This document shows positions 28,962 through 46,868 of a stretch of 64,000 nucleotides of DNA, piece by piece (positions within the stretch are counted from its first letter, which is position 1; every line of letters starts with the position of its first letter). Below the pieces are notes generated by a model, which searched no databases, was not told the DNA's origin, and saw only the letters and a program-made list of their open reading frames with translations. The position numbers were made by a program, and so were the translations under genes. The stretch comes from Escherichia phage RB16. The stretch lies in the sequence record NC_014467.1; one strand, given 5' to 3'.

Positions 28962-29627
28962 TTATTTCTCGTTTAGTTTAGTTAAGGTTTGTTTCATTAA
29001 ATTTCGGTATTTTACGATTTCTTCGTCACTGATTTCTACTAATTTTCTGTATGCGTTTAGTTTTTTGCTAAATTCATTCCAGACGAAATCCGTTGCGATT
29101 TCATCGTGTTTATTTATGATGTCTAAAAATGAGTCGAGAATCAAGAATGATTCGTAAGAAATCACTCCAGACTGAACGAGTTTACTGATATAAGAAGTGG
29201 ATGATTTTACGCTATACTGAAACACCGTTGAGAGGGGAATACCTTTCATGCGGGAAAATTCATACAGGTTTTTTACATCGTCCACGAAAATATTATCAAT
29301 TCGTCGCAACTTACCAATGTATTGACGATAAAACACGATCGTATCTTCGTCTATATCCCCAACCCAAAAGTCGGGGTTAGCCACCATGTTGCAGAGTAGT
29401 ATAAGGTAAATTTCCTTGAAAGTAAACCTTTCGGCTAACTTTGTGAAAAAATACCTATCTTTTCTCTTTTGGAACGCTTGTTCAGTGATCTTTATTTCCC
29501 ATTTGTACTTGATCGCGTCATACCTTCCCGCAAAGTGATTTTTCATCACCAGATACAGTTTGTATACCGCAATCGGTTTCAAACGGGAATTAGCGTCTGA
29601 ACTTCCAAACGGGGTTTTAAATTTCAC
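28962..29627 (-). CDS. 59: helicase loader (gp59)
   Basis: 221 aa; resembles T4 gp59 (VYKLYLVMKNH, YFFTKL, LDSFLDIINKHDE). Confidence 0.8.
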   Translation of the reverse strand: MKFKTPFGSSDANSRLKPIAVYKLYLVMKNHFAGRYDAIKYKWEIKITEQAFQKRKDRYFFTKLAERFTFKEIYLILLCNMVANPDFWVGDIDEDTIVFYRQYIGKLRRIDNIFVDDVKNLYEFSRMKGIPLSTVFQYSVKSSTSYISKLVQSGVISYESFLILDSFLDIINKHDEIATDFVWNEFSKKLNAYRKLVEISDEEIVKYRNLMKQTLTKLNEK

Positions 29628-29875
29628 ATGAAATCATCCAGAGTTTGCGTTGTTGTGTGGTCTTTAGCCACAGAAGGACGCAACAAATTATTTTTGATTG
29701 CTTCATCGCTAATCTTGTCAATGATAGCTTTCGGAACAGTTTTATTCAACATGGAATAGTCGATACTATTTTCATCCATCCACTGTAACGTTGCTTCCAT
29801 GTAGGTTGCCCCTTCTGAGGCAACCAGATTTTCGATGTACAAGCCTACTTCGGTTTTATTTCCGATTTCGCTCAT
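29624..29875 (-). CDS. 33: late transcription co-activator (gp33)
   Basis: 83 aa; motifs YMEAT..W..EN and LLRPSV shared with T4 gp33. Confidence 0.65.
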   Translation of the reverse strand: MSEIGNKTEVGLYIENLVASEGATYMEATLQWMDENSIDYSMLNKTVPKAIIDKISDEAIKNNLLRPSVAKDHTTTQTLDDFM

Positions 29876-29876
29876 T

Positions 29877-30140
29877 TTACGCCTTATCGATCACATCGTA
29901 AAGTTCGATCAGTTCGTTGTTTTGTTCTTCGAACTCGGTACGCGCCTGGTTGTGATACAGGTTGAACAGCTTGCTAAACGTTTTACCGTCGATGCCGTAG
30001 TCAGTTTTCGCTTTGGATTTGATATCTTTCAACGTACCCTGATGGATCTCGATCTGGGTTTTCACGTTGGACGCTTCTTTGATCATGTCTTTGATTGCTT
30101 TTGCAATTTCAGGGTTTTCTTGCAGTAATTCAATGCTCAT
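29877..30140 (-). CDS. dsbA: double-stranded DNA-binding protein DsbA
   Basis: 87 aa; resembles T4 DsbA (IKEA.NV..QI..H..TLKDIK..AKT..G.DGK.F.KL). Confidence 0.65.
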   Translation of the reverse strand: MSIELLQENPEIAKAIKDMIKEASNVKTQIEIHQGTLKDIKSKAKTDYGIDGKTFSKLFNLYHNQARTEFEEQNNELIELYDVIDKA

Positions 30141-33523: not shown

Positions 33524-33797
33524 CAGATATGAAAAATATTTCGGTGAGAACCCCCGATATTCTCACCTGTTGCGTATGCTGGGAATGAAACATATCATTG
33601 CCACTTCTGACGAAGCAGGGGAAACCAGCGCAGTTTGTTTGACCATCATGAAGGGTGCATGGCATTCATCACGAACATGGTCAATCTTCATGCTTGATAC
33701 ACTGGACGACGATACGCTATCATATACTATTGATTCATCGGTTGTTCAATTGATCACTGAATTATGTGAACGGATTTTAAATGAAACTAAAAACTAA
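33516..33797 (+). CDS. hypothetical protein (GTG start)
   Basis: 93 aa track ORF beginning on GTG; may be a remnant next to the homing endonuclease insertion. Confidence 0.25.
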   Translation: MHSRYEKYFGENPRYSHLLRMLGMKHIIATSDEAGETSAVCLTIMKGAWHSSRTWSIFMLDTLDDDTLSYTIDSSVVQLITELCERILNETKN

Positions 33798-34311
33798 ATC
33801 ACATGGAGGTGGAAACCGAACAATTGATGATGAAATTTCTTCAATAAATGAACTACTTCCTATGTTGGATGTTGATGTTGTATTAGGAAAGATATACTGG
33901 AAAAACTCACCTCGTAAGAGCGTCCCTGCTGGAACTGAAGCAGGGAGTAAGACAAAACATGGTTACGTTGCTATCGGGTATAAAAAGACGTATTATAGAC
34001 GACATCGAATAATATTTTACGTCGCTAATGGTTATCTTCCTCTCGTAGTAGATCACAAACACGGTGTTGAATCTGGTGATGGAATAGATAACCTGCAAGA
34101 CATCACGCAACAACAAAACTCCGTTAAAATGAGAATGAGTAGAAGGAATTCTTCTGGGTTTAGAGGGGTTTCCTTTCACCAAAAATCAGGAAAATGGCAA
34201 TCATGTATTGTGTATAATAGAAAAACAATATATCTTGGTTTGTATGAAACACCAGAACTTGCACATAGTGCATATACAGACAAGCGAAAAGAATTATTTG
34301 GTGAAATATGA
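33781..34311 (+). CDS. HNH-AP2 homing endonuclease (Mob-like)
   Basis: 176 aa; HNH_3-type core YLPLVVDHKHGVESGDGIDNL and AP2-type DNA-binding region GVSFHQKSGKWQSCI...YLGLYETPELAHSAY; inserted between gp47 and gp46. Confidence 0.7.
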   Translation: MKLKTKSHGGGNRTIDDEISSINELLPMLDVDVVLGKIYWKNSPRKSVPAGTEAGSKTKHGYVAIGYKKTYYRRHRIIFYVANGYLPLVVDHKHGVESGDGIDNLQDITQQQNSVKMRMSRRNSSGFRGVSFHQKSGKWQSCIVYNRKTIYLGLYETPELAHSAYTDKRKELFGEI

Positions 34312-36005
34312 AATTAAATTTCCGTAAAATTAAGTATCAAAACATCTTATCAGTGGGTAATACCCCGATCGAACTTGAATTCGATACTGCAAAGAAAACC
34401 CTGATCACGGGTAAAAATGGTGGTGGTAAATCCACACTGATCGAAGCGTTGACGTATGCTCTTTTTGGTAAATCATTTCGTGATTTAAAAGTCGGGCAAC
34501 TGGTAAACAGTGTCAACAAAAAGAAATGTCTGGTTGAACTGGATATTGAATACGGGAAAGATTCGTACAAAGTCGTTCGCGGACAAAAGCCGAAAGTATT
34601 CGAGATCTGGAAAAACGGTGATAAGTTAGCAGAAGATTCAGCAGCGGGTGATTATCAATCTCAGCTTGAATCCATGCTCAATATTAACCTGGTTGGATTC
34701 AAACAGGTAATCGTGTTGGGTACTGCTGGCTATACTCCATTCATGGAACTGAAAACACCGGATCGCCGTAAACTGGTTGAAGACCTGTTGTCGCTATCGG
34801 TTATCAGTGAAATGGATAAGCTGAACAAATCATATGTCCGTGGTGTTAATCAGCAGTTGGATACCCTGTCAATGCAGGTTAACCACATCCAGCAGCAGAT
34901 CGCTACACACCAGCGCTTCATTGATGAACAGCGAGCTAAAGCGAACCAGAACAACGCACGATACAAAGAGATCTACGATAGCCACGTTGAAACCGCTAAG
35001 AACATCAAAGCACAGCTTATGCAGTTGCAAGCGGAGATCGCAGAAACGGTGATCACTGGTGCAGACCGAACGGAAGATATAAACAAACTCCGTGATGGCT
35101 ATACGCGCCTCTCTATGACTGTAGAACAGTTTAAAAAGCTGGAAGTGATGTATCAGAAAGGTGGTGAGTGTCCGGCCTGTAAACAGGCGATTAAGCCCAC
35201 TCCTGAACGCATGGAAGAGATCGCAAACAACATCAAAGCGGGTACGCAACGATTAACGCTGATCAAAACCAAACAGGACGAGTTGCAAGGCATTATGAAC
35301 GAGTTGCTTCAACAGCAACGCGCACTGAATGCTATGAAAACGAAATACGAAGCCCTGAAAGGTACGCTGCAAAATGAAGTTGCCAACGCTAAACGCGCAC
35401 AAGCGATCATGGAACAGGCAAGCGCGGAAGTTGTTATTGATGAAGAACCTGTTAAGCAGTTACAACAACAGGAAGCAGATCTGAACGATAAACGTCAAGG
35501 ATATGTGAAAGAAAAATATATCCGTGGTATCGTTACAGATATGTTAAAAGATTCTGGTGTAAAAGCCAGCATCGTAAAACGTTATATCCCGTACTTCAAC
35601 AAGCAGATCGCATACTATCTGGATCTGTTGGGCGCTGACTACCAGTTCACTTTAGATGATGAATTCAACGAATCAATCAAATCACTGGGGCGCGATGATT
35701 TTAGTTACGCATCATTTAGCCAGGGTGAACGCGCACGAATCAACCTTGCGTTGCTTATGACCTGGCGTGATGTAACAAGTAAAGTTTCTGGTGTTGATTT
35801 ATCGCTTCTGGTACTAGATGAAATCTTTGATGGTGCAATGGATAAAGAAGGTGGATTTGCAGTCAGAGCATTACTGGATGATATTGAAGGTAATGTTATT
35901 GTAATCAGTCATCAGGATTTAGATCCACAAGAATTTCATCGACATATTGTTATGTCTAAAGTAGGGAGATTCACCAAATGCAAGATAGTAAACAATGATT
36001 ACTAA
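34308..36005 (+). CDS. 46: recombination endonuclease subunit (gp46, Rad50/SbcC-like ATPase)
   Basis: 565 aa; Walker A GKNGGGKST; coiled coil with zinc hook CPACK; Walker B/D-loop LLVLDE. Confidence 0.85.
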   Translation: MKLNFRKIKYQNILSVGNTPIELEFDTAKKTLITGKNGGGKSTLIEALTYALFGKSFRDLKVGQLVNSVNKKKCLVELDIEYGKDSYKVVRGQKPKVFEIWKNGDKLAEDSAAGDYQSQLESMLNINLVGFKQVIVLGTAGYTPFMELKTPDRRKLVEDLLSLSVISEMDKLNKSYVRGVNQQLDTLSMQVNHIQQQIATHQRFIDEQRAKANQNNARYKEIYDSHVETAKNIKAQLMQLQAEIAETVITGADRTEDINKLRDGYTRLSMTVEQFKKLEVMYQKGGECPACKQAIKPTPERMEEIANNIKAGTQRLTLIKTKQDELQGIMNELLQQQRALNAMKTKYEALKGTLQNEVANAKRAQAIMEQASAEVVIDEEPVKQLQQQEADLNDKRQGYVKEKYIRGIVTDMLKDSGVKASIVKRYIPYFNKQIAYYLDLLGADYQFTLDDEFNESIKSLGRDDFSYASFSQGERARINLALLMTWRDVTSKVSGVDLSLLVLDEIFDGAMDKEGGFAVRALLDDIEGNVIVISHQDLDPQEFHRHIVMSKVGRFTKCKIVNNDY

Positions 36006-36570
36006 AAACTGGGACGACGAATTTCAAGCCGAGATTCGTCGTCGGTTTTACCATGTAAACGGGGTTTTGTATCACAAGACGGAGAGTAAACAAACTGCTT
36101 TTTCTCCGGCGGGATACTATTTCAAACCTGGTGATATGGTGAAATGTCACAAAACTAGGAAAAAGACTCCATATTTACAGATTTGTATGCGATATGAAGG
36201 GAAGTCTAACTATCTATACGTACATAGGGTTGTGTGGTTTCTTGAATATGGGTATCAGGTTGATACGATCGACCATATCGATCTAAATCCTTTAAATAAT
36301 GATCCATCGAATCTTAGAGAAGCAAGCACACAGCAGAACCATTACAACAAAAATGGAAAACCTAACACTTCCTCCACTTACAAGGGTGTATCATGGGATA
36401 AATCAACTTGCAAATGGAAAGTGGGTATTCAGCATAATAAGAAAAAGATTCATTTAGGATATTTTGATGATGAAGTCGAAGCGGCTAAGGCATACGATGC
36501 AAAGGCAATTGAAATTGGTGGACAATATGCGAGGTTAAACTTCCATGATTATGTTAGAACGAGAATTTGA
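35995..36570 (+). CDS. HNH-AP2 homing endonuclease (Mob-like)
   Basis: 191 aa; HRVVW...IDHIDLNPLNNDPSNLR HNH_3 motif and AP2-like KGVSWDKSTCKWKVGI...LGYFDDEVEAAKAY. Confidence 0.7.
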   Translation: MITKNWDDEFQAEIRRRFYHVNGVLYHKTESKQTAFSPAGYYFKPGDMVKCHKTRKKTPYLQICMRYEGKSNYLYVHRVVWFLEYGYQVDTIDHIDLNPLNNDPSNLREASTQQNHYNKNGKPNTSSTYKGVSWDKSTCKWKVGIQHNKKKIHLGYFDDEVEAAKAYDAKAIEIGGQYARLNFHDYVRTRI

Positions 36571-36742
36571 ATTGATGACCTCTCCAGAAGCGGAGAGGTT
36601 TTATCTTCATAACGAACTGTTGGAAGAAAAACACGTTGTCTCTATGGAAGATGTCAAAGAAGCCTTTAAAGACAATCAGTTAGAGCTAACGCGAATACTG
36701 AATAATAAATCGTCTATGTGGTTTCTCGAAAAAATCTATTGA
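36545..36742 (+). CDS. hypothetical small protein
   Basis: 65 aa ORF overlapping the end of the endonuclease gene; weak. Confidence 0.25.
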   Translation: MIMLEREFELMTSPEAERFYLHNELLEEKHVVSMEDVKEAFKDNQLELTRILNNKSSMWFLEKIY

Positions 36743-36767
36743 CATCAGAACATAAATACCTTAAAGT

Positions 36768-36800
36768 TGCCCGTGTACTGAGATGCACGGGCTTTTATTT
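36768..36800 (+). terminator. rho-independent terminator (GCCCGTG...CACGGGC + TTTTATTTT)
   Basis: Perfect 7-bp GC stem followed by T-run. Confidence 0.6.
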
Positions 36801-36813
36801 TGAGGAACGGAAA

Positions 36814-38511
36814 ATGATTAACGAAAAAATGACACACCGCGAAGCGTTGGAAATCTTAGGGGCCACGGGTACTGAATCCAAAGCTGAAATGTCCAAACTC
36901 TTCAAACGTGCTTCTCTGCGTAATCACCCCGATCGTGGTGGTAGCACAGAACTCATGCAAAAAATTAACCAGGCATATGACGTAGTAACGAGAACAAACA
37001 GTTCTGGTGAAACTATGATGGATATGCGAGCGCGTCACGCAGCGAATAAAAAAGCGTGGGAAGAAAAACTGGATGCGTATTTTGTTGTTGCTAAGAACTA
37101 TTTCAGCACGAAATTTAACGCACAGGAATTCGCTGAATACTTCACCAAATACACCGGACAGCCGACGACCTTCACACAGGTAGTCAAGAAAGATACAATT
37201 TCCGTATCTGCTGTGTTCCGTTTCACTTCTGGTGATGCTCACTTTGATTTCGCTTTCTACTGCAAGCCAGAAGAAGGTAAAGGTTTGATGTCTCCTGATG
37301 CAAGCGCATTGGGTAGTGTTTCTGTCAATACTCTGGTACTGGTTGGAACCAAAAAACATAAAATGGCAAGCCGTGAATATCAATGGGGCAAAAACCCAGA
37401 TAAGATCACACCGGAAAGCCTGTTCCCGTCCAAGAAACTTGCATCAATTTTCAGCCCGACACAAAAGAACCTCAAGTTCAAACGTGCTGACTATATGACT
37501 TCTTTCCGCAAGCACTTAGACGCAGAAATCAGCGGCAATGATATCTATGTTCCTGTAGGCGACCTGAAAGTTCGTTTCTATCGTCATGTAATGATGCGTA
37601 AAGGTGCGTATGTGTTTAGTGCGGTATACGACCCAGCGGTAAGTAAATTCCGTTCTGCTGCAAACCTTCGCGGTACTATGTTTGAAGACGAAGACGGCGC
37701 ATGTTTGGATATGATTATCGACACTTTCAAAGAAATGCAGAAAGCAAAACCGAACGTTAACGGTATTGTCAGTATCATTGACAAGATGAACGCAGAATTC
37801 GCAGCGGGACACCGTTCAGCATCTTTCGTCAAACGTATGGCACAGCAAGCAGCAGCACCGAAGCCGGAAGAAAAGCCGAAACGCACTGTTAACCGTATCA
37901 GCAAAGATGATTATTTCAACGCATTGAAACAAGCGGGTGCAACATTCCGTAGCAACTACGGTGAGTTTGATAACGGCGCTGGATTGACGTTCCACTTCAA
38001 ACGCGAGATCAGCAACCGTAAAGGCTTCTGGAGTTTCAGCAGTTTTAATTTCATGCACTCCGGTCAAAGTCATGTTGAATGGTTGAAAGATATCGACATT
38101 GACGAAGACAGCAAAGGTGCAAGTATCGGTCTGATGGTTGATACTCTGAAACAGTTGCGTGGTGTTGCTGATTGGTATACTGCAAGAAAGATCCTGGAAG
38201 CGATGCGCGATAACTTCAAAGCTGGTAAGTTCTCCGCACCACACGTTAAGAAAGAAGCCGAACAGAAACGCACTGAGGCGCAAGCTAAGGACGAGTTAGG
38301 CGCACAGCCTACCAAACCCCAGGGAGCGAAGAAAGAAGCCCCAGCAGTTGATAAGGCTCACGAGGCACAGATGGATCGTGAGAAGTCACAGATGAATGCA
38401 ACCATTCGTTCTATGCTCTCTGCCCTGGTTAAAGCCGGACGCAAAGACACGCCGGAAGAAATTAAAAAAGCAGTCGATGAAGCAATCGCTCTTTGGCGCT
38501 TGAAACACTAA
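36814..38511 (+). CDS. J-domain (DnaJ-like) protein, about 566 aa
   Basis: Start placed at MINEKMTHREALEILG (RBS GAGGAA); canonical J-domain with HPD motif (LRNHPDRGGSTELMQKINQAYDVV); the remaining ~490 aa have no recognised domain. Confidence 0.6.
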   Translation: MINEKMTHREALEILGATGTESKAEMSKLFKRASLRNHPDRGGSTELMQKINQAYDVVTRTNSSGETMMDMRARHAANKKAWEEKLDAYFVVAKNYFSTKFNAQEFAEYFTKYTGQPTTFTQVVKKDTISVSAVFRFTSGDAHFDFAFYCKPEEGKGLMSPDASALGSVSVNTLVLVGTKKHKMASREYQWGKNPDKITPESLFPSKKLASIFSPTQKNLKFKRADYMTSFRKHLDAEISGNDIYVPVGDLKVRFYRHVMMRKGAYVFSAVYDPAVSKFRSAANLRGTMFEDEDGACLDMIIDTFKEMQKAKPNVNGIVSIIDKMNAEFAAGHRSASFVKRMAQQAAAPKPEEKPKRTVNRISKDDYFNALKQAGATFRSNYGEFDNGAGLTFHFKREISNRKGFWSFSSFNFMHSGQSHVEWLKDIDIDEDSKGASIGLMVDTLKQLRGVADWYTARKILEAMRDNFKAGKFSAPHVKKEAEQKRTEAQAKDELGAQPTKPQGAKKEAPAVDKAHEAQMDREKSQMNATIRSMLSALVKAGRKDTPEEIKKAVDEAIALWRLKH

Positions 38512-38527
38512 CTGGTTATGCTATAAT
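38500..38527 (+). promoter_or_regulatory. sigma70-like promoter with extended -10: TTGAAA, 16-bp spacer, TGcTATAAT, overlapping the terminator hairpin 38528-38557
   Basis: Near-consensus hexamers; hairpin GGGAACTG...CAGTTCCC + TTTTTT directly downstream. Confidence 0.5.
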
Positions 38528-38568
38528 GGGAACTGTTGAAAAGCAGTTCCCTTTTTTATGAGGTGAGT

Positions 38569-40524: not shown

Positions 40525-42777
40525 ATGAGTGATATTAAAACAGTAGTAAAATCTTCTGGCGTAAGTCAGACATTTGAAAAAGAAAAACTGTTCAAAGTCC
40601 TTAATTGGGCGAGTGCTGGAAAGAATATTGATGTTAACGCATTCCTTGAAAATGTTGTTGACCTGCTTCGTGATGGTATGACTACCAAACAGATCCAGGC
40701 TGTAGCAATCAAGTATGCAGCGGATCGAATCTCCGTTAAAGAACCTGACTGGCAGTATGTAGCGGCTAACCTCGAAATGTTCGCCCTTCGTAAAACCGTT
40801 TACGGGCAGTTTGACCCGATCCCGTTCTACGAACACATCACTAAGCTGGTTGAGGCAGGAAAATACGATAAAGAAATCCTGACCAAATGGACTAAATCCG
40901 ATATCGAATATTTCGAAGAGAATATTAATCACGATAAAGATTTTGAATTCTCTTATGCTGGCGTTCAACAGTTGATCGGGAAATATCTGTTGCAGGATCG
41001 CACCAACGGCGATATCTACGAAACACCACAGTATGCATTCATGCTGATTGCGATGTGTTTACACCAGGATGAACCGCGCACCCTGTCGGCGTTTAATCAT
41101 GTGGTTGACTTCTATAACGCAATTTCGGATCGTAAACTGTCATTACCTACGCCTATTATGGCGGGTGTGCGTACTCCTACGCGTCAGTTCTCCAGTTGTG
41201 TTGTAATCGAATCTGGTGATTCTCTGGGTTCTCTGAACGCTGTTACGTCCGCGATCGTGAAATATATCTCTCAACGTGCGGGTATCGGTGTCAACGCCGG
41301 ACACATTCGCGCTATGGGTTCAAAAATCCGTGGTGGTGAAGCAGTCCATACAGGCGTTATCCCGTTCTGGAAACACATTCAGACGGCGGTTAAATCTTGT
41401 TCCCAGGGTGGCGTTCGTGGTGGTGCAGCAACCCTGTATTATCCGATCTGGCATCTTGAAGTTGAAAACCTGCTGGTTCTGAAAAATAACCGTGGCGTTG
41501 AAGAAAACCGTATTCGTCACCTGGACTATGGCGTACAGCTTAACGATTTGATGTATAAGCGTTTAATCAATAACGATTACATCACTCTGTTCAGCCCTGA
41601 CGTTGCGAATGATCGCCTCTATGACGCGTTCTATCAAGCGGATCAGACTGAGTTTGAAGAACTCTATACCAGTCTGGAAAAAGACCCAGCGGTACGCAAG
41701 AAACGTATTAAAGCGGTAGATCTGTTCCAGTTGCTTGTTCAGGAACGCGCACAGACCGGACGCAAATACATTTTCAACAGTCACCATGTAAACCAGCAGG
41801 GTAGTTTCTCTGTTCCGATTCGTATGTCGAACCTGTGCTGTGAAATCGCGATCCCAACTTCACCGCTGGATGATGATGATAAACTGGCTGGCGAAATTGG
41901 ACTGTGTACGCTTATGGCGATCGTTCTCGATAATGCCGATATAAGCGAATTCCCAGCCCTTACACGCATCGCAGTACGCGCACTGGATAACTTGCTGGAT
42001 TACCAGAACTACCCTGTTGCGGCGGCTCTGAAAGCCAAACAGCGTCGTTCTCTGGGTGTGGGTATCACCAACTATGCATCATGGCTGGCAAGCAACTATT
42101 GCGACTACTCCGAAGCATACGCCGGAAACGTTCATGAGTTGATGGAAGCGTTTCAATTTAACCTGCTGGTTGCCTCTATGGAACTCGCACAGGAACGCGG
42201 TGCATGTGGACTGTTCCACGAAACGAAATATGCACAAGGGCTGTTGCCTATTGACTGGTACTGCAAAAACGTTGATGAACTGGCATCACCTGTGTATAAC
42301 TGCGACTGGGAATGGTTACGCGGTGAAATCAAAAAACATGGCTTGCGTAACTCAACACTTTCTGCTTTAATGCCTTGTGAAAGTAGCTCACAGGTGAGTA
42401 ACTCAACCAACGGGATCGAACCTCCACGCGGCCCTGTGAGTGTGAAATCTTCTAAGGAAGGTTCATTCAATCAGGTAGTACCGAACCAGAATAATCAGAT
42501 TGACTTCTATGATTATCTCTGGACAATGGCAAAACGCGGAAATAAAGGTTATCTGGCTCACGTAGCGGTTATGCAGAAGTTTGTTGATCAGGCTATCTCT
42601 GCAAACACCAACTATGATCCGGCTAACTTCCCAGATGGTAAAGTGAAATCTGAAATCATCCTTGAAGATCTGCTGTATGCAAACTATTTCGGCATCAAAA
42701 CGCTGTACTACCACAACACCCGCGACGGTGCAGGTGAGGAAGAAGCGGAAGATTCATGTGAGGGATGCAAAATTTAA
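40525..42777 (+). CDS. nrdA: ribonucleoside-diphosphate reductase large subunit (class Ia)
   Basis: 750 aa; N-terminal ATP-cone; catalytic region NLCCEI; C-terminal Cys pair CEGCK. Confidence 0.9.
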   Translation: MSDIKTVVKSSGVSQTFEKEKLFKVLNWASAGKNIDVNAFLENVVDLLRDGMTTKQIQAVAIKYAADRISVKEPDWQYVAANLEMFALRKTVYGQFDPIPFYEHITKLVEAGKYDKEILTKWTKSDIEYFEENINHDKDFEFSYAGVQQLIGKYLLQDRTNGDIYETPQYAFMLIAMCLHQDEPRTLSAFNHVVDFYNAISDRKLSLPTPIMAGVRTPTRQFSSCVVIESGDSLGSLNAVTSAIVKYISQRAGIGVNAGHIRAMGSKIRGGEAVHTGVIPFWKHIQTAVKSCSQGGVRGGAATLYYPIWHLEVENLLVLKNNRGVEENRIRHLDYGVQLNDLMYKRLINNDYITLFSPDVANDRLYDAFYQADQTEFEELYTSLEKDPAVRKKRIKAVDLFQLLVQERAQTGRKYIFNSHHVNQQGSFSVPIRMSNLCCEIAIPTSPLDDDDKLAGEIGLCTLMAIVLDNADISEFPALTRIAVRALDNLLDYQNYPVAAALKAKQRRSLGVGITNYASWLASNYCDYSEAYAGNVHELMEAFQFNLLVASMELAQERGACGLFHETKYAQGLLPIDWYCKNVDELASPVYNCDWEWLRGEIKKHGLRNSTLSALMPCESSSQVSNSTNGIEPPRGPVSVKSSKEGSFNQVVPNQNNQIDFYDYLWTMAKRGNKGYLAHVAVMQKFVDQAISANTNYDPANFPDGKVKSEIILEDLLYANYFGIKTLYYHNTRDGAGEEEAEDSCEGCKI

Positions 42778-42806
42778 CGGAGAAGCCCCGAAAGGGGCTT
42801 TTTGAT

Positions 42807-43295
42807 ATGATAACACAATCGCGATTGAAAGAATTATTGACGTATGACAAAGAAACTGGTATTTTTCACTGGAAAGTAAAACTGAATAACAACCATGACA
42901 TAACAAAACCTGCTGGCGTTGTGTATGATGGATATGTTAGGATACAGGTAGACGGTAAAAAATATCGAGCGCACCGATTAGCGTGGTTGTATGTATATGG
43001 CTATATGCCAGAACTTATCGACCACAAAAACGGAATAACTACCGATAATTGGATAGATAATTTGCGGATTGCTTCATGCACTCAAAATCAATACAACAGC
43101 AAGATTCGAAAAGATAACACGTCTGGAATCAAAGGCGTTTCTTTTCATAAAAGAACTGGAAAATGGCAAGCAAAATGCCGTGTTGATGGAATAGTTCATT
43201 ATTTGGGATTATTCCACACAACAACCGAAGCCGAATCCGCTGTAATTGCGTTTCGACATAAACACCATCAAGAATATAGTAACGACGGGAAATAA
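42807..43295 (+). CDS. mobE: HNH-AP2 homing endonuclease between nrdA and nrdB (MobE position)
   Basis: HNH_3 motif HRLAW...IDHKNGITTDNWIDNLR and AP2-like GVSFHKRTGKWQAKC; T4 also carries mobE between nrdA and nrdB. Confidence 0.7.
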   Translation: MITQSRLKELLTYDKETGIFHWKVKLNNNHDITKPAGVVYDGYVRIQVDGKKYRAHRLAWLYVYGYMPELIDHKNGITTDNWIDNLRIASCTQNQYNSKIRKDNTSGIKGVSFHKRTGKWQAKCRVDGIVHYLGLFHTTTEAESAVIAFRHKHHQEYSNDGK

Positions 43296-43296
43296 T

Positions 43297-44472
43297 ATGC
43301 TTACAGTAATGAATACAAACCCAGATCACAAACACTTAGAACAGCCTATGTTCTTTGGCGAAGATACTGGGGTTGCGCGATACGAAGAACAAAAGCATCG
43401 TGTGTTTGAAAATCTTACGGAAAAACAGTTATCCTTCTTTTGGCGTCCAGAAGAAATTGACTTATCGATCGACCGTATGCAGTACGCGAAAATGCCGGAA
43501 CACGAAAAAATCATTTTCGATTCGAACCTGCAATATCAAACCCTGTTGGATACCATTCAGGGGCGCGGCCCTAACCTGGCTTTCCTCCCTATCGCTTCCG
43601 ATGTCTCGATGGAAACGTGGATCGAAACATGGGCGTTCAGTGAAACAATCCATAGCCGCAGTTATACGCACATTCAGCGCAACCTACACATCGACCCGTC
43701 AAAAGAGTTCGATAAAATTCTGCGCAACGAAGCGATCATGAAACGTTCGGCTTCCATGACAAAATACTACGATGACCTGATCGCAGAATGTCACGAACTG
43801 AAAAACATTGTGCTCAAAATCGAAATGTTAACGTCCCACGGATACCCAGACGAATCGATCGCAGAGTACGAAAAGAAACGCAAAGAGCAAATGCGTAAAT
43901 GTAAGATTGCTCTGTACCTGTGTATGCACGCTGTCAACGCTCTGGAAGCGATCCGCTTCTACGTGTCGTTTACCTTCACGTTCAACTTTGCCGAACAAGG
44001 TAAGATGGAAGGTAACGCGAAGATCATGCGTCTGATTGCCCGTGATGAAGCACTTCATCAGAAAGGTACTCAAAGCAAGATCCGACTCTGGCAAATGGGT
44101 AAAGACGACCCAGAAATGGCAGAAATCGCATTCCAGTATGAAGAGGAAGCGACACAGATTTTCCTTGAAGTATACGAACAGGAAAAAGAATGGGCTGAAC
44201 ACCTGTTCTCTATCGGTGACGTAGACGGCGTATCCCTGAAAAGTACGATCGCCTATATCGAACACCTGACGGATCAGCGTATGCGAGCGGTTGGCCTACA
44301 GTCTCCATTTAAACCTTCACCGAACCCGTATCCGTGGATGAATAAATGGTTGAAGTCAGACAACGTACAGGTAGCCCCGCAAGAGGTAGAAGTAAGTTCT
44401 TACCTGGTTGGCAACCTTAACACTGAGATCAGCGACGAAGCCTATGCAAAATGGCGACAAAAATACGCGTAA
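43297..44472 (+). CDS. nrdB: ribonucleoside-diphosphate reductase small subunit
   Basis: Start placed at MLTVMNTNPD; di-iron ligand helices (E...H, EALH) present; uninterrupted. Confidence 0.85.
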   Translation: MLTVMNTNPDHKHLEQPMFFGEDTGVARYEEQKHRVFENLTEKQLSFFWRPEEIDLSIDRMQYAKMPEHEKIIFDSNLQYQTLLDTIQGRGPNLAFLPIASDVSMETWIETWAFSETIHSRSYTHIQRNLHIDPSKEFDKILRNEAIMKRSASMTKYYDDLIAECHELKNIVLKIEMLTSHGYPDESIAEYEKKRKEQMRKCKIALYLCMHAVNALEAIRFYVSFTFTFNFAEQGKMEGNAKIMRLIARDEALHQKGTQSKIRLWQMGKDDPEMAEIAFQYEEEATQIFLEVYEQEKEWAEHLFSIGDVDGVSLKSTIAYIEHLTDQRMRAVGLQSPFKPSPNPYPWMNKWLKSDNVQVAPQEVEVSSYLVGNLNTEISDEAYAKWRQKYA

Positions 44473-44481
44473 GGACATAAC

Positions 44482-45039
44482 ATGATTGATGCGATTCCCG
44501 TTTATACGGGAGTCCATCACAATCTATACGCATACCTGGCGGGTTGTGTTGATTGTGATGGATGGATTAGTGAAAAAGGAAAGAATGGTTATCTGGTTGG
44601 GCTTACACAGCATATTCAACTATGGGATGATATGGTTAGCATTCAATCTGATTTGATTAACGATGGTGTTGATGCAAAATTATATGAAAGAACCAGTAGA
44701 ACAGGATTAGGTAATACGTTGATGTGCAACCTAATTATTCAAAAATCATCGGATCTCTTGATTCTGTTACCGAGAATCATTCCATACCTTCGATTTAAAA
44801 AGCAAAAAGCAGTTGACGCATATTTTAATTTGTGTAAACATTCAGATCTTAATGCAAGTTCATCCGATAATGATATGAAAGGAAGTAAACGAAAGTATTG
44901 GAAGCCGGAAGAAATATCCGAACTAATTCGTTTACATTCGGAGGGTTACAACAACCCAGCGATAGGGATTAAAATGAATCGTTCTACCGATTCAATAAGT
45001 CATAAGTTGCATCGGTTGGGTATCATGAGAAACGAATGA
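44482..45039 (+). CDS. LAGLIDADG-like endonuclease with C-terminal helix-turn-helix
   Basis: 185 aa; motif YLAGCVDCDGWIS fits LAGxxDxDG near the N-terminus; C-terminal sigma-region-4-like HTH. Confidence 0.5.
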   Translation: MIDAIPVYTGVHHNLYAYLAGCVDCDGWISEKGKNGYLVGLTQHIQLWDDMVSIQSDLINDGVDAKLYERTSRTGLGNTLMCNLIIQKSSDLLILLPRIIPYLRFKKQKAVDAYFNLCKHSDLNASSSDNDMKGSKRKYWKPEEISELIRLHSEGYNNPAIGIKMNRSTDSISHKLHRLGIMRNE

Positions 45040-45446
45040 TGGAATCGAAAGTTTATAGAATGTCTCTTGACAAATGCGGTCGAATAGACCGCAGTTTTAT
45101 CAAGTGTGGTGAGTTAAGAAATTGCGTTTACTGTATTGAAATCGACGGCGTGATCGTGTATGTTGGTAAAGCAAAAGACATGTGGAAGCGATTAGATACG
45201 TACAGGAATTCAAAATACTGGAGGGAAGCAAACCCCAGCAACATTTTGAAAACCGCACGTCTGGAAATGGCAATCAAAAAACGTAAGCGTGTGAATCTCA
45301 TTGTGACAACACACGACGAAAACACATATCATAATTTTGAAATAAACATGATCCGAAAAATTAATCCTGAATGGAATAAACAGCACTATGACAAAGCTAA
45401 CCAAAAACCAGAAAACACTCTTCAACCAATTAATGAAGTTGTGTAA
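45036..45446 (+). CDS. denA: endonuclease II (DenA, GIY-YIG family)
   Basis: 136 aa (same as T4 EndoII); VYVGKAKDMWKRLDTYR and C-terminal INPEWNKQH resemble T4 DenA. Confidence 0.7.
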   Translation: MMESKVYRMSLDKCGRIDRSFIKCGELRNCVYCIEIDGVIVYVGKAKDMWKRLDTYRNSKYWREANPSNILKTARLEMAIKKRKRVNLIVTTHDENTYHNFEINMIRKINPEWNKQHYDKANQKPENTLQPINEVV

Positions 45447-46545
45447 CGAAACCGAATGCTTTTACTTTATTGACCAAAAAACCGTAATGCAAACCCACGT
45501 TCGCATTTTCAACTATCGTATGGCAAGTTACAGCGATTGGTTGAAACCTGGTGCGCTGGAGTGTCGCGGTATTATGTTTGCGATGGATGGAGACACCCCC
45601 GTAAAACTCGTCAGCCGTCCTATGGAGAAGTTTTTCAACTATGCTGAGGTAAAGGCATGGGAAGCACTTAAAGAGGCTCCTGTGACGATTGGCGACACCG
45701 TAGTTGATGTGATGATCAAAGAAGATGGTTCCTTAATCTCAACCTTCTGCGATTCCGGCTATCTGGGCGTTAAATCTAAAGCGTCAGTTCAGTCTGAACA
45801 GGCTATGGATGCTATGAGCGTGATCCAATCTAACCGCGCATTGTTCGATCGCCTGACCGAACTGGTGGTTGATGGGTTCACCGTTAACATGGAATACGTC
45901 GCACCGACTAACCGCATTGTAATTGGTTATCAAGACCCCGCTGTTGTGATCCTGAACATCCGTAATAACGACACGGGCGAATACGTCGATTATCAGGACA
46001 TCTTCGCAGATAGTGTATTACGTCCGTTCCTTGTTGAGCGTGAGAAAATCGAAGTCACCGATCTGGATGCATTCATTACCGAAGCCTACACGAAAGAAGG
46101 TTTTGAGGGTTACGTAATCAAAACTGATAAAGGGTTCGTGAAAGCGAAAACTAACTGGTACGTAAACCTACACCGCACGAAAGATAGCATCAACAATAAT
46201 AAGGATCTGTTCTTAAATATTGTTGAAAATACCGTCGATGACCTGAAACAAATGTTCCTCGATGATATGTACGCACTCAAGAAAATTGACGCATTCGAAA
46301 CGTTATTCCTTGATAGTCTGAATCGTCTGACTGCAAAAGCATTCCAGTCAATCGAAGACACGAAAGGCAAATCACGCAAAGATTACGCGATCGCCCTGAG
46401 TTCTGACTTAACCCCTGACGGTCGTATCATCTTCGGGCCTATGATGCGTTATTTTGATGATACCGATAAGCAAAAGCTGGTCGATAACATCGTTGCATTA
46501 ATGGCGAAGAACTACGAACAGTTTATACCGGAAGAATATAAATGA
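45388..46545 (+). CDS. rnlA: RNA ligase 1
   Basis: 385 aa; strong resemblance to T4 Rnl1 (YSDWLKPGALECRGIMF.MDG, VAPTNRIV, EGYV, KIDAFET, FIPEEY). Confidence 0.85.
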   Translation: MTKLTKNQKTLFNQLMKLCNETECFYFIDQKTVMQTHVRIFNYRMASYSDWLKPGALECRGIMFAMDGDTPVKLVSRPMEKFFNYAEVKAWEALKEAPVTIGDTVVDVMIKEDGSLISTFCDSGYLGVKSKASVQSEQAMDAMSVIQSNRALFDRLTELVVDGFTVNMEYVAPTNRIVIGYQDPAVVILNIRNNDTGEYVDYQDIFADSVLRPFLVEREKIEVTDLDAFITEAYTKEGFEGYVIKTDKGFVKAKTNWYVNLHRTKDSINNNKDLFLNIVENTVDDLKQMFLDDMYALKKIDAFETLFLDSLNRLTAKAFQSIEDTKGKSRKDYAIALSSDLTPDGRIIFGPMMRYFDDTDKQKLVDNIVALMAKNYEQFIPEEYK

Positions 46546-46868
46546 CATTACCCGCCTTTCCAAAGTTAACTTCTTTGGTGTGGCCTGTACTTGTTGCCCT
46601 GTCTCTGGCAGGGCTTTTGTACATGACAATCACGCTGAAAAGTGAAAACGATCAATTGGCTAAAGATATCAAAGAGTTACGCGATGATGTCAAAAAAGTC
46701 AAAGAGACAAACAACACCAATACGGTGATCTACGTCGAACAAAAAGCGAAGGATCAGCAGTTGGTCAAGGATGCCGGACGTAAAGACCTGCTGTTCAAGA
46801 AACCAGGACTGATCGAAATCAAGATCAATAAATCCTTCGAAGAGTATATGAGAGATTTCGAAAAATGA
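46542..46868 (+). CDS. i-spanin (inner-membrane spanin subunit)
   Basis: 108 aa; N-terminal TM followed by charged coiled-coil region; directly upstream of lipoprotein ORF. Confidence 0.5.
   Translation: MTLPAFPKLTSLVWPVLVALSLAGLLYMTITLKSENDQLAKDIKELRDDVKKVKETNNTNTVIYVEQKAKDQQLVKDAGRKDLLFKKPGLIEIKINKSFEEYMRDFEK

Follow-up and report, generated by a model that had tools for sequence, protein, structure and literature searches.

ORF185, an open reading frame (ORF) located between the conserved genes nrdB and denA in a 64,000-nucleotide (nt) stretch of Escherichia phage RB16 (record NC_014467.1; referred to here as the window), is probably an intact, free-standing gene for a single-motif, I-CreI-like LAGLIDADG homing endonuclease that is fused through a flexible linker to a GcrA/Myb-like helix-turn-helix (HTH) module and whose most likely target is a gene of the DUF4326 family. 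We place the probability of this assignment near 0.65. It is carried by the predicted fold, the conserved active-site residues, purifying selection, the polymorphism of the nrdB-denA junction, a long tract of perfect identity with phage RB43 and a recurrent association with DUF4326 genes.

Predicted fold and active site

The AlphaFold2 model of ORF185 (predicted local distance difference test score, pLDDT, 92.4) exhibits an α-β-β-α-β-β-α topology. The core comprises helix 13-26, strands 27-32 and 36-44, helix 45-60, strands 66-74 and 77-86, and helices 89-102 and 107-123, and a linker of lower confidence leads to a three-helix bundle (142-153, 158-164 and 169-178). The top 50 Foldseek matches in the PDB are all LAGLIDADG proteins, led by the homodimeric enzymes I-CvuI, I-MsoI and I-CreI, and the same three enzymes were the only LAGLIDADG entries matched when a five-sequence profile was compared with the PDB.

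Each chain carries one LAGLIDADG motif, at the end of helix 13-26, with a core (LAGCVDCDG, residues 19-27) that agrees with LAGLIDADG at 6 of 9 positions; two of the three mismatches are conservative. The original prediction, made from the DNA letters alone, had pointed to such a motif near the N-terminus, and the match is not coincidental because a profile of 46 homologues aligns to I-CreI with an hhalign probability of 96.7% and an expect value (E) of 3.9e-10. This alignment pairs Asp26 with Asp20 of I-CreI, the Thr-Gln pair with Thr46-Gln47 and Lys106 with Lys98. The placement of Gln43 was ambiguous in hidden Markov model alignments (Gln44 or Gln47 of I-CreI) and was settled as Gln47 by hhalign together with homologues whose hairpin has the I-CreI length. 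The ORF185 segment PYLRFK aligns with PFLKLK of I-CreI and PYLRIKK of I-MsoI.

An exhaustive HMMER search of 1.84 billion representative sequences was needed to reveal the family, a word-indexed protein search having retrieved just 2 homologues. It returned 133 matches, of which about 50 are full-length proteins of 172-205 amino acids (aa) with the same two-domain architecture. Ala20, Asp26, Gly27, Gln43, Lys106 and Trp140 are invariant in the 46 homologues despite a mean column identity of 30%. Pfam families matched by these homologues are LAGLIDADG_1 (24 proteins, best E 7e-8), LAGLIDADG_3 (19), HTH_38 (13), GcrA (6) and Myb (5); ORF185 itself matches LAGLIDADG_3 at residues 17-85 (E 1.4e-3) and HTH_38 at residues 136-178 (E 9e-5). 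Both the fold and the active site support membership of the LAGLIDADG superfamily, and ORF185 is predicted from its sequence to be a nuclease. A related protein of 181 aa (P0065) has the two domains in swapped order, its N-terminal part being the GcrA-like HTH and its C-terminal part LAGLIDADG_1.

The C-terminal domain had originally been described as an HTH resembling sigma region 4. The three-helix HTH stands, but the specific likeness to sigma region 4 does not, as structurally the domain is nearest to the GcrA and Myb types. The same module recurs as 3-11 tandem copies in large poly-HTH proteins, among them P0004 (914 aa), P0037 (773 aa), P0043 and P0044, and one poly-HTH protein also contains TFIIB repeats and a zinc ribbon. 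The idea that the module is specific to nucleases was rejected: these proteins share it without having nuclease domains, which makes it a general Myb/GcrA-type HTH.

The two-domain composition could also be that of a domesticated DNA-binding protein that no longer cuts, either a WhiA-like regulator with LAGLIDADG and HTH domains or a maturase-like factor, serving phage gene regulation. We regard this as very unlikely. Asp26, Gln43 and Lys106 do not vary across the 46 homologues, whereas WhiA reportedly, judging by its structure, has lost the catalytic residues, and neither ORF185 nor any of the 46 homologues matches the Pfam WhiA families. The gene is moreover sporadic and missing from most close relatives, unlike a regulator that the phage needs.

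The oligomeric state of the presumed endonuclease was probed by modeling two copies of the core domain joined by a 30-residue Gly/Ser tether, with an equivalent alignment of 24 homologues. The AlphaFold2 model of this artificial construct, in which the tether forces proximity, has a predicted TM-score (pTM) of 0.83. Its best structural matches are monomerised I-MsoI (E 3.8e-12; query TM-score, TMq, 0.60) and single-chain I-CreI, with both halves aligned and TMq values of 0.58-0.60. Artificial as it is, the model is supportive of ORF185 acting as a homodimer.

Junction polymorphism and distribution

The nrdB-denA junction is polymorphic among related phages, in agreement with the insertion of ORF185 between these genes that had been proposed at the outset. 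In KPN-12i the junction is empty (28-bp spacer), in GAP161 it is occupied by an HNH-AP2 endonuclease gene, and in SemperBestia, KP15 and about 100 other Slopekviruses it holds a DUF4326 gene of 103-109 aa. Translational coupling to the 136-aa gene of the GIY-YIG enzyme endonuclease II, also part of that proposal, is borne out by an ATGA overlap, which RB43 and KP27 share, and by the identity of the downstream gene: the denA product matches T4 endonuclease II (PDB 2WSH, E 1.7e-6), the UvrC GIY-YIG domain and PHROG 1111 ('endonuclease', 1.4e-43), with a weaker match to Pfam GIY-YIG (E 0.011).

The first ~10-15 codons of denA (45036-45080) vary by junction type when compared with the corresponding loci L003, L002 and L004. 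The N-terminus reads MMESKVYRM in the window and RB43, MVNTTTKVYKM at the empty and HNH-AP2 junctions, and MDDVTFGV... (MDDVTFGVIFPLRLG) at DUF4326 junctions, so that each cassette brings its own denA start. Among ~60 Pseudotevenvirus records an ORF185-type gene was found only in RB43 (4 records of one phage), and among more than 100 Slopekvirus records it occurs in 6 (the KP27 group). By tblastn, the SemperBestia-type (leb-type) DUF4326 allele is present at an identity of at least 90% in 43 phage records and the Slopekvirus allele in ~125.

Identity tract shared with RB43 and selection on ORF185

ORF185 is 100% identical at the nucleotide level to RB43ORF066w, which is labelled 'hypothetical' in GenBank, and it lies within a perfectly identical tract of 892 bp. 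The tract begins 48 nt before the end of nrdB, runs through the spacer and ORF185, and stops 281 nt into the denA ORF (numbered from 45036). To the left it thus extends past ORF185 by 57 nt, made up of the nrdB portion and the 9-nt spacer, and to the right by 277 nt. It is the longest perfect run against RB43 in the first 50 kb. The runner-up of 619 bp (29413-30031) lies in the gene 59/33/dsbA region, where no endonuclease gene was noticed nearby. The surrounding genes have a different affinity: window nrdB is 94.6-95.7% identical to its counterparts in KPN-12i and GAP161 and 89.5% identical to that of RB43, and for nrdA and nrdB together the values are 95-97% and ~89%, respectively. The tract looks like the product of homing with co-conversion of the flanks, although it represents a single natural event and ordinary recombination could yield the same pattern.

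Comparison with the KP27 copy gives a ratio of nonsynonymous to synonymous divergence (dN/dS) of 0.078 for ORF185, low in both domains, which indicates purifying selection. Between the same two genomes the synonymous divergence (dS) is 0.69 for ORF185 and 1.89 for nrdB. The two gene copies thus separated later than the genomes in which they reside, a sign that ORF185 has moved between genera.

A different explanation of the tract is that ORF185 is a decaying or inactive endonuclease gene that now spreads solely by ordinary homologous recombination among mosaic phage genomes, the 892-bp tract being a normal recombination patch. RB43-shared patches without an endonuclease gene do exist in the window (the 619-bp run, and 97% identity over 36548-38563), and homing endonuclease genes often degenerate after fixation (PMC13405050). 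Yet the ORF is full length in all copies, its active-site residues are intact and the dN/dS of 0.08 extends to both domains; the tract is not only the longest in 50 kb but is centred on ORF185, and the dS of the gene lies far below that of its flanks between genera. We therefore consider decay improbable and prefer an intact endonuclease gene.

DUF4326 as the candidate target

The target of ORF185 relatives is probably the DUF4326 gene, as suggested by what these endonuclease genes replace or adjoin in phage sequences. KP27 and KP15 have flanks that are more than 99% identical and differ by a clean exchange of DUF4326 and ORF185 between the nrdB stop and the denA ATG. In Phapecoctavirus, where 13 of 71 records carry the gene, the ORF185 homologue stands in place of tuntematon gp078 (DUF4326, E 1e-21), and in Certrevirus, where 3 of 25 do, it stands in place of CR3_043 (DUF4326, E 4e-22). 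Cassette-for-cassette replacement of DUF4326 is thus seen in four lineages (Slopekvirus, Pseudotevenvirus, Phapecoctavirus and Certrevirus), and the flanking genes in the latter two are wholly different from nrdB and denA. In the metagenomic contigs L010-12, L013, L019, L022 and L024/25 a family member lies directly 3' of a DUF4326 gene and overlaps it. Altogether DUF4326 is involved in 9 of 13 informative contexts, for a gene that is present in just 1302 of 50,697 phage records. On contig L023 the family member P0036 (2001-2687) directly follows and overlaps a PolA gene, not a DUF4326 gene. DUF4326 has been proposed to be a rhodanese-phosphatase-like domain that acts on ADP-ribose derivatives in virus-host conflicts (PMC9503650).

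Two of the metagenomic contigs, L010 and L013, retain traces that may reflect the insertion itself. Here the C-terminal tail of the endonuclease repeats the C-terminus of DUF4326 with the usual spacing (C-SPQA-CHG... and C-KPWA-CHG..., that is, C-x4-CHG), and the DUF4326 gene upstream ends in an atypical substitute with 11-13 residues between CxC and CHG. L022 and L024/25 share this long spacer. By comparison, the spacer is 4 aa long in DUF4326 alleles that have no endonuclease gene nearby. The expanded alleles are located at L010 3149-3772, L013 1090-1467, L022 2-97 and L024 154-444. The displacement of the DUF4326 3' end in L010 and L013 indicates that an element with a replacement 3' end of its own, presumably one resistant to cutting, was inserted at the Cys-x-Cys codons; the expanded spacer is possibly such a recoded, cleavage-resistant end.

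The best 22-bp pseudo-palindrome in the SemperBestia DUF4326 gene consists of the half-sites GGTTAGGATGT and ACATGCAAACC, pairs at 9 of 11 half-site positions and has its centre at the Cys-Thr-Cys codons; a palindrome of this quality would turn up by chance somewhere in the gene with a probability of roughly 0.04. This candidate site and DUF4326 genes of any kind are absent from the window, which would explain self-immunity. A tblastn search of the window for DUF4326 remnants found none, its sole match being an 8-codon start that overlaps the 3' end of nrdB. Insofar as one event can indicate it, the lengths of the tract to the left and right of ORF185 fit a model in which DUF4326 was cut close to its 3' end and the DNA was then resected about equally in both directions. 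The empty junction of KPN-12i was also considered as a palindromic target and was found unconvincing, only the CAC...GTG ends being recognizable by eye.

ORF185 might instead be an active homing endonuclease that cuts the conserved flanks, either the 3' end of nrdB or the variable 5' end of denA, in which case ORF185 and DUF4326 would alternate only because both insert at the same hot spot. Such distant cutting inside neighboring genes is attributed to the free-standing T4 enzymes SegG and MobE by references cited in PMC2993671. The variation of the denA 5' end between junction types, the extension of the identity tract 281 nt into the denA ORF, and the existence of both an empty junction (KPN-12i) and an HNH-AP2 occupant (GAP161) are in line with this view. 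It is nevertheless unlikely: the flanks in Phapecoctavirus and Certrevirus are unrelated, leaving DUF4326 as the sole element common to the four lineages and five metagenomic contigs, and the fusion of displaced DUF4326 3' ends to the endonuclease in L010 and L013 suggests that the insertion took place within DUF4326.

Several observations weigh against ORF185 being an active dimeric enzyme directed at DUF4326. ORF185 itself stays under the Pfam gathering thresholds (19.3 vs 22.5 for LAGLIDADG_3 and 22.6 vs 27 for HTH_38). The tether imposes the proximity of the two halves in the dimer model, and the training of AlphaFold included LAGLIDADG dimers. Ordinary mosaic recombination can leave identity tracts as well, and the 619-bp perfect tract without an endonuclease gene indicates that mosaic patches can arise without one. 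The right boundary of the 892-bp tract is blurred, the window remaining nearer to RB43 than to KPN-12i from 45317 to ~45740, and the left boundary is sharper. As to the target, the endonuclease-adjacent DUF4326 allele of contig L019 has a near-normal spacer of 5 aa, the region of the KP15-type DUF4326 gene equivalent to the candidate site is only 5/11 palindromic by manual count, and four contexts of the family, one of them following the PolA gene, have no DUF4326 gene.

A broader interpretation, for which the odds seem about even, is that ORF185 belongs to an undescribed LAGLIDADG-HTH family of ~50 clusters at 50% identity that is specialised on DUF4326/NrdA.1 across unrelated phage lineages, namely the T4-like Pseudotevenvirus and Slopekvirus, together with Phapecoctavirus, Certrevirus and uncultured phages. 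The family would employ two modes, insertion at the Cys-x-Cys codons with a recoded substitute 3' end, and whole-gene replacement in large lytic phages. The predicted site in leb-type phages would be GGTTAGGATGTACATGCAAACC.

Proposed mechanism

We propose that two copies of ORF185 would dimerise through their LAGLIDADG helices to form two active sites, each with Asp26, Gln43 and Lys106. The β-sheet saddle would read a core site of ~22 bp, and the two HTH tails may add contacts to the flanking DNA. During mixed infection the enzyme would cut the allele of a co-infecting relative that lacks ORF185, and recombinational repair on the nrdB and denA homology of the donor would copy ORF185 in and co-convert the flanks, a form of intronless homing. 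As the most likely target we favor the small DUF4326 (NrdA.1-like) gene found at the nrdB-denA junction of most relatives, with the cut predicted at or near the codons of the Cys-x-Cys...Cys-His-Gly-Asp motif. Genomes with ORF185 would be immune because the whole DUF4326 gene has been replaced.

Gene context of ORF185

The features of the locus are listed in Table 1. The downstream neighbor of denA is rnlA. The 9-nt spacer between nrdB and ORF185 contains no convincing promoter, and ORF185 is thus presumably co-transcribed with nrdB. The base composition of ORF185 deviates from that of nrdA/nrdB, with a G+C content of 36.9% vs 46% overall and 31.7% vs 46-53% at third codon positions. Over its full length the protein matches PHROG 16747 (1.7e-113), a group of unassigned function. 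The 3.4 kb around ORF185 match RB43 at 91% and GAP161 at 94%, which places the window in the RB43/RB16/GAP161 type of the genus Pseudotevenvirus.

Table 1 Features of the nrdB-ORF185-denA locus (coordinates of the window).
Feature	Position	Strand	Remarks
nrdB	43297..44472	+	Left flank of the insertion
Putative co-conversion tract	44425..45316		892 bp, 100% identical to RB43; mismatch map; background ~89%
Shine-Dalgarno-like AAGGA	44471..44475	+	6 nt before the ORF185 ATG; overlaps the nrdB stop codon; direct sequence reading
ORF185 (= RB43ORF066w; PHROG 16747)	44482..45039	+	ATG start, 185 aa; probable free-standing LAGLIDADG-HTH homing endonuclease gene
LAGLIDADG core domain, aa 13-123	44518..44850	+	α-β-β-α-β-β-α plus one extra helix
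LAGLIDADG motif YLAGCVDCDGWIS, aa 18-30	44533..44571	+	Predicted catalytic Asp26 codon at 44557-44559
Gln43 codon	44608..44610	+	Equivalent of I-CreI Q47; invariant in 46 homologues; hhalign
Lys106 codon	44797..44799	+	Equivalent of I-CreI K98; invariant in 46 homologues; alignments
C-terminal three-helix HTH, aa 136-178	44887..45015	+	GcrA/Myb-like; less confident linker at aa ~124-138
ATGA overlap of ORF185 stop and denA start	45036..45039	+	TGA 45037-45039, ATG 45036-45038
denA (endonuclease II, GIY-YIG), 136-aa ORF	45036..45446	+	PDB 2WSH match

The possibility that ORF185 is encoded in a group I intron was rejected, as an Rfam scan of 42500-46800 gave zero matches at E<=1 and the ORF occupies the intergenic stretch that separates the nrdB stop from the denA start. 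The 5' coding region of denA contains a perfect 7-bp inverted repeat at 45075-45093 (TGCGGTC-GAATA-GACCGCA) that is conserved in all denA alleles and includes GCGG/CCGC, the recognition core of endonuclease II according to a note in the KP15 record. This repeat was rejected as a homodimer target on account of that conservation and its occurrence in ORF185-bearing genomes; moreover, its centre is a single base, a misfit with a symmetric cut of 4-nt stagger.

Three other ORFs on the plus strand of the window encode proteins with HNH_3 and AP2 domains. The first, at 42765-43295 (176 aa; Pfam E 1.2e-12 and 8e-4), is a free-standing homing endonuclease gene between nrdA and nrdB, the position of mobE in T4; its identity to GAP161_064 is 97%, and RB43, KPN-12i and SemperBestia lack it. 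The other two, at 33781-34311 (176 aa) and 35995-36570 (191 aa), flank a gene-46 homologue and are insertions relative to RB43. Just past the latter begins the block at 36548-38563 (DnaJ-like ORF057w/ORF058w region), in which 2 kb are 97% identical to RB43 over a background of ~88%.

Earlier records and significance

The gene of ORF185 has been in databases since 2005 and is not the discovery of a new principle. In a 2006 paper RB43ORF066w figures as one of the 'putative mobile DNA elements', with a weak match to Pfam LAGLIDADG (E 0.15; PMC1524935). Table 5 of the 2010 census of endonuclease genes in T4-related phages has no LAGLIDADG column, and RB43ORF066w is absent (PMC2993671). Stoddard (2014) placed LAGLIDADG enzymes in organellar and archaeal genomes and described those of phages as combining an HNH, GIY-YIG or EDxHD domain with tethered DNA-binding domains of modular type (PMC3943268). 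The starting assumption that free-standing LAGLIDADG genes are uncommon in T4-type phages is consistent with both sources. In the literature searched, there was no report of the DUF4326 association, of the putative natural co-conversion tract or of the predicted site.

T4-type phages are known for GIY-YIG and HNH endonucleases, and ORF185, if the assignment is true, would add the LAGLIDADG catalytic class to the T4-like mobilome, in the form of a compact homodimeric enzyme with a tethered HTH and a fresh natural co-conversion tract. In the broader interpretation, replacement of the whole gene would amount to a natural gene drive against an accessory gene with a possible role in counter-defence, and the removal of DUF4326 by a selfish endonuclease would bear on the turnover of accessory genes in therapeutic phages of Klebsiella, Enterobacter and Cronobacter. 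Enzyme engineering could also profit from a scaffold in which an I-CreI-like core already carries an additional DNA-binding module. The recurrent link to DUF4326 supplies a concrete target gene and site that can be tested.

Comparison with known systems

I-CreI, I-MsoI and I-CvuI are homodimeric single-motif enzymes of introns in green-algal chloroplast rRNA genes, whereas ORF185 is free-standing and intergenic in a phage. ORF185 shares with this type the single motif and the Gln and Lys equivalents, but not the intron-encoded feature. Sequence identity to the group is 15-25%, and ORF185 differs by the additional C-terminal HTH of ~50 aa and by a shorter β1-β2 hairpin, with 17 rather than 27 residues from the catalytic Asp to the Gln. 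The candidate target of ORF185 is a protein-coding accessory gene and theirs is rDNA.

Fungal mitochondrial LAGLIDADG genes of the I-OnuI/I-LtrI type reside in the rps3 coding region together with a duplicated 3' end. The arrangement in L010 and L013 is similar: the endonuclease gene lies near the 3' end of a protein gene, a substitute end is supplied and the original is displaced downstream. The rps3-type enzymes differ in being two-domain monomers of organelles, and in the window the target gene appears to be replaced outright, leaving no remnant. The bacterial regulator WhiA (DUF199) descends from a LAGLIDADG endonuclease, and its single chain holds two degenerate LAGLIDADG domains that lack the catalytic residues. 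It shares with ORF185 only the C-terminal HTH; ORF185 has one LAGLIDADG domain with the catalytic equivalents intact.

Gp14 of mycobacteriophage LittleE resembles ORF185 in being phage-borne, I-CreI-related and of comparable size (177 aa), with a C-terminal module of ~50 aa that is common to other nucleases, in this case HNH proteins (PMC3706429). The likeness is by description, and gp14, unlike ORF185, is encoded within an intron of the capsid gene (PMC3706429). Like the seg (GIY-YIG) and mob (HNH) genes of T4-type phages, for example those of SegF, SegG and MobE, ORF185 is sporadic, lies between conserved genes and is associated with apparent flanking co-conversion and short gene overlaps (PMC2993671); free-standing HNH-AP2 genes are present in the window as well. 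ORF185 differs from seg and mob genes in its catalytic family and in that it appears to have supplanted the whole target gene instead of lying next to it. Judged by its sequence, ORF185 would work like an I-CreI-type enzyme that has adopted two habits of phage endonucleases, the tethering of an accessory DNA-binding domain and a free-standing existence without an intron.

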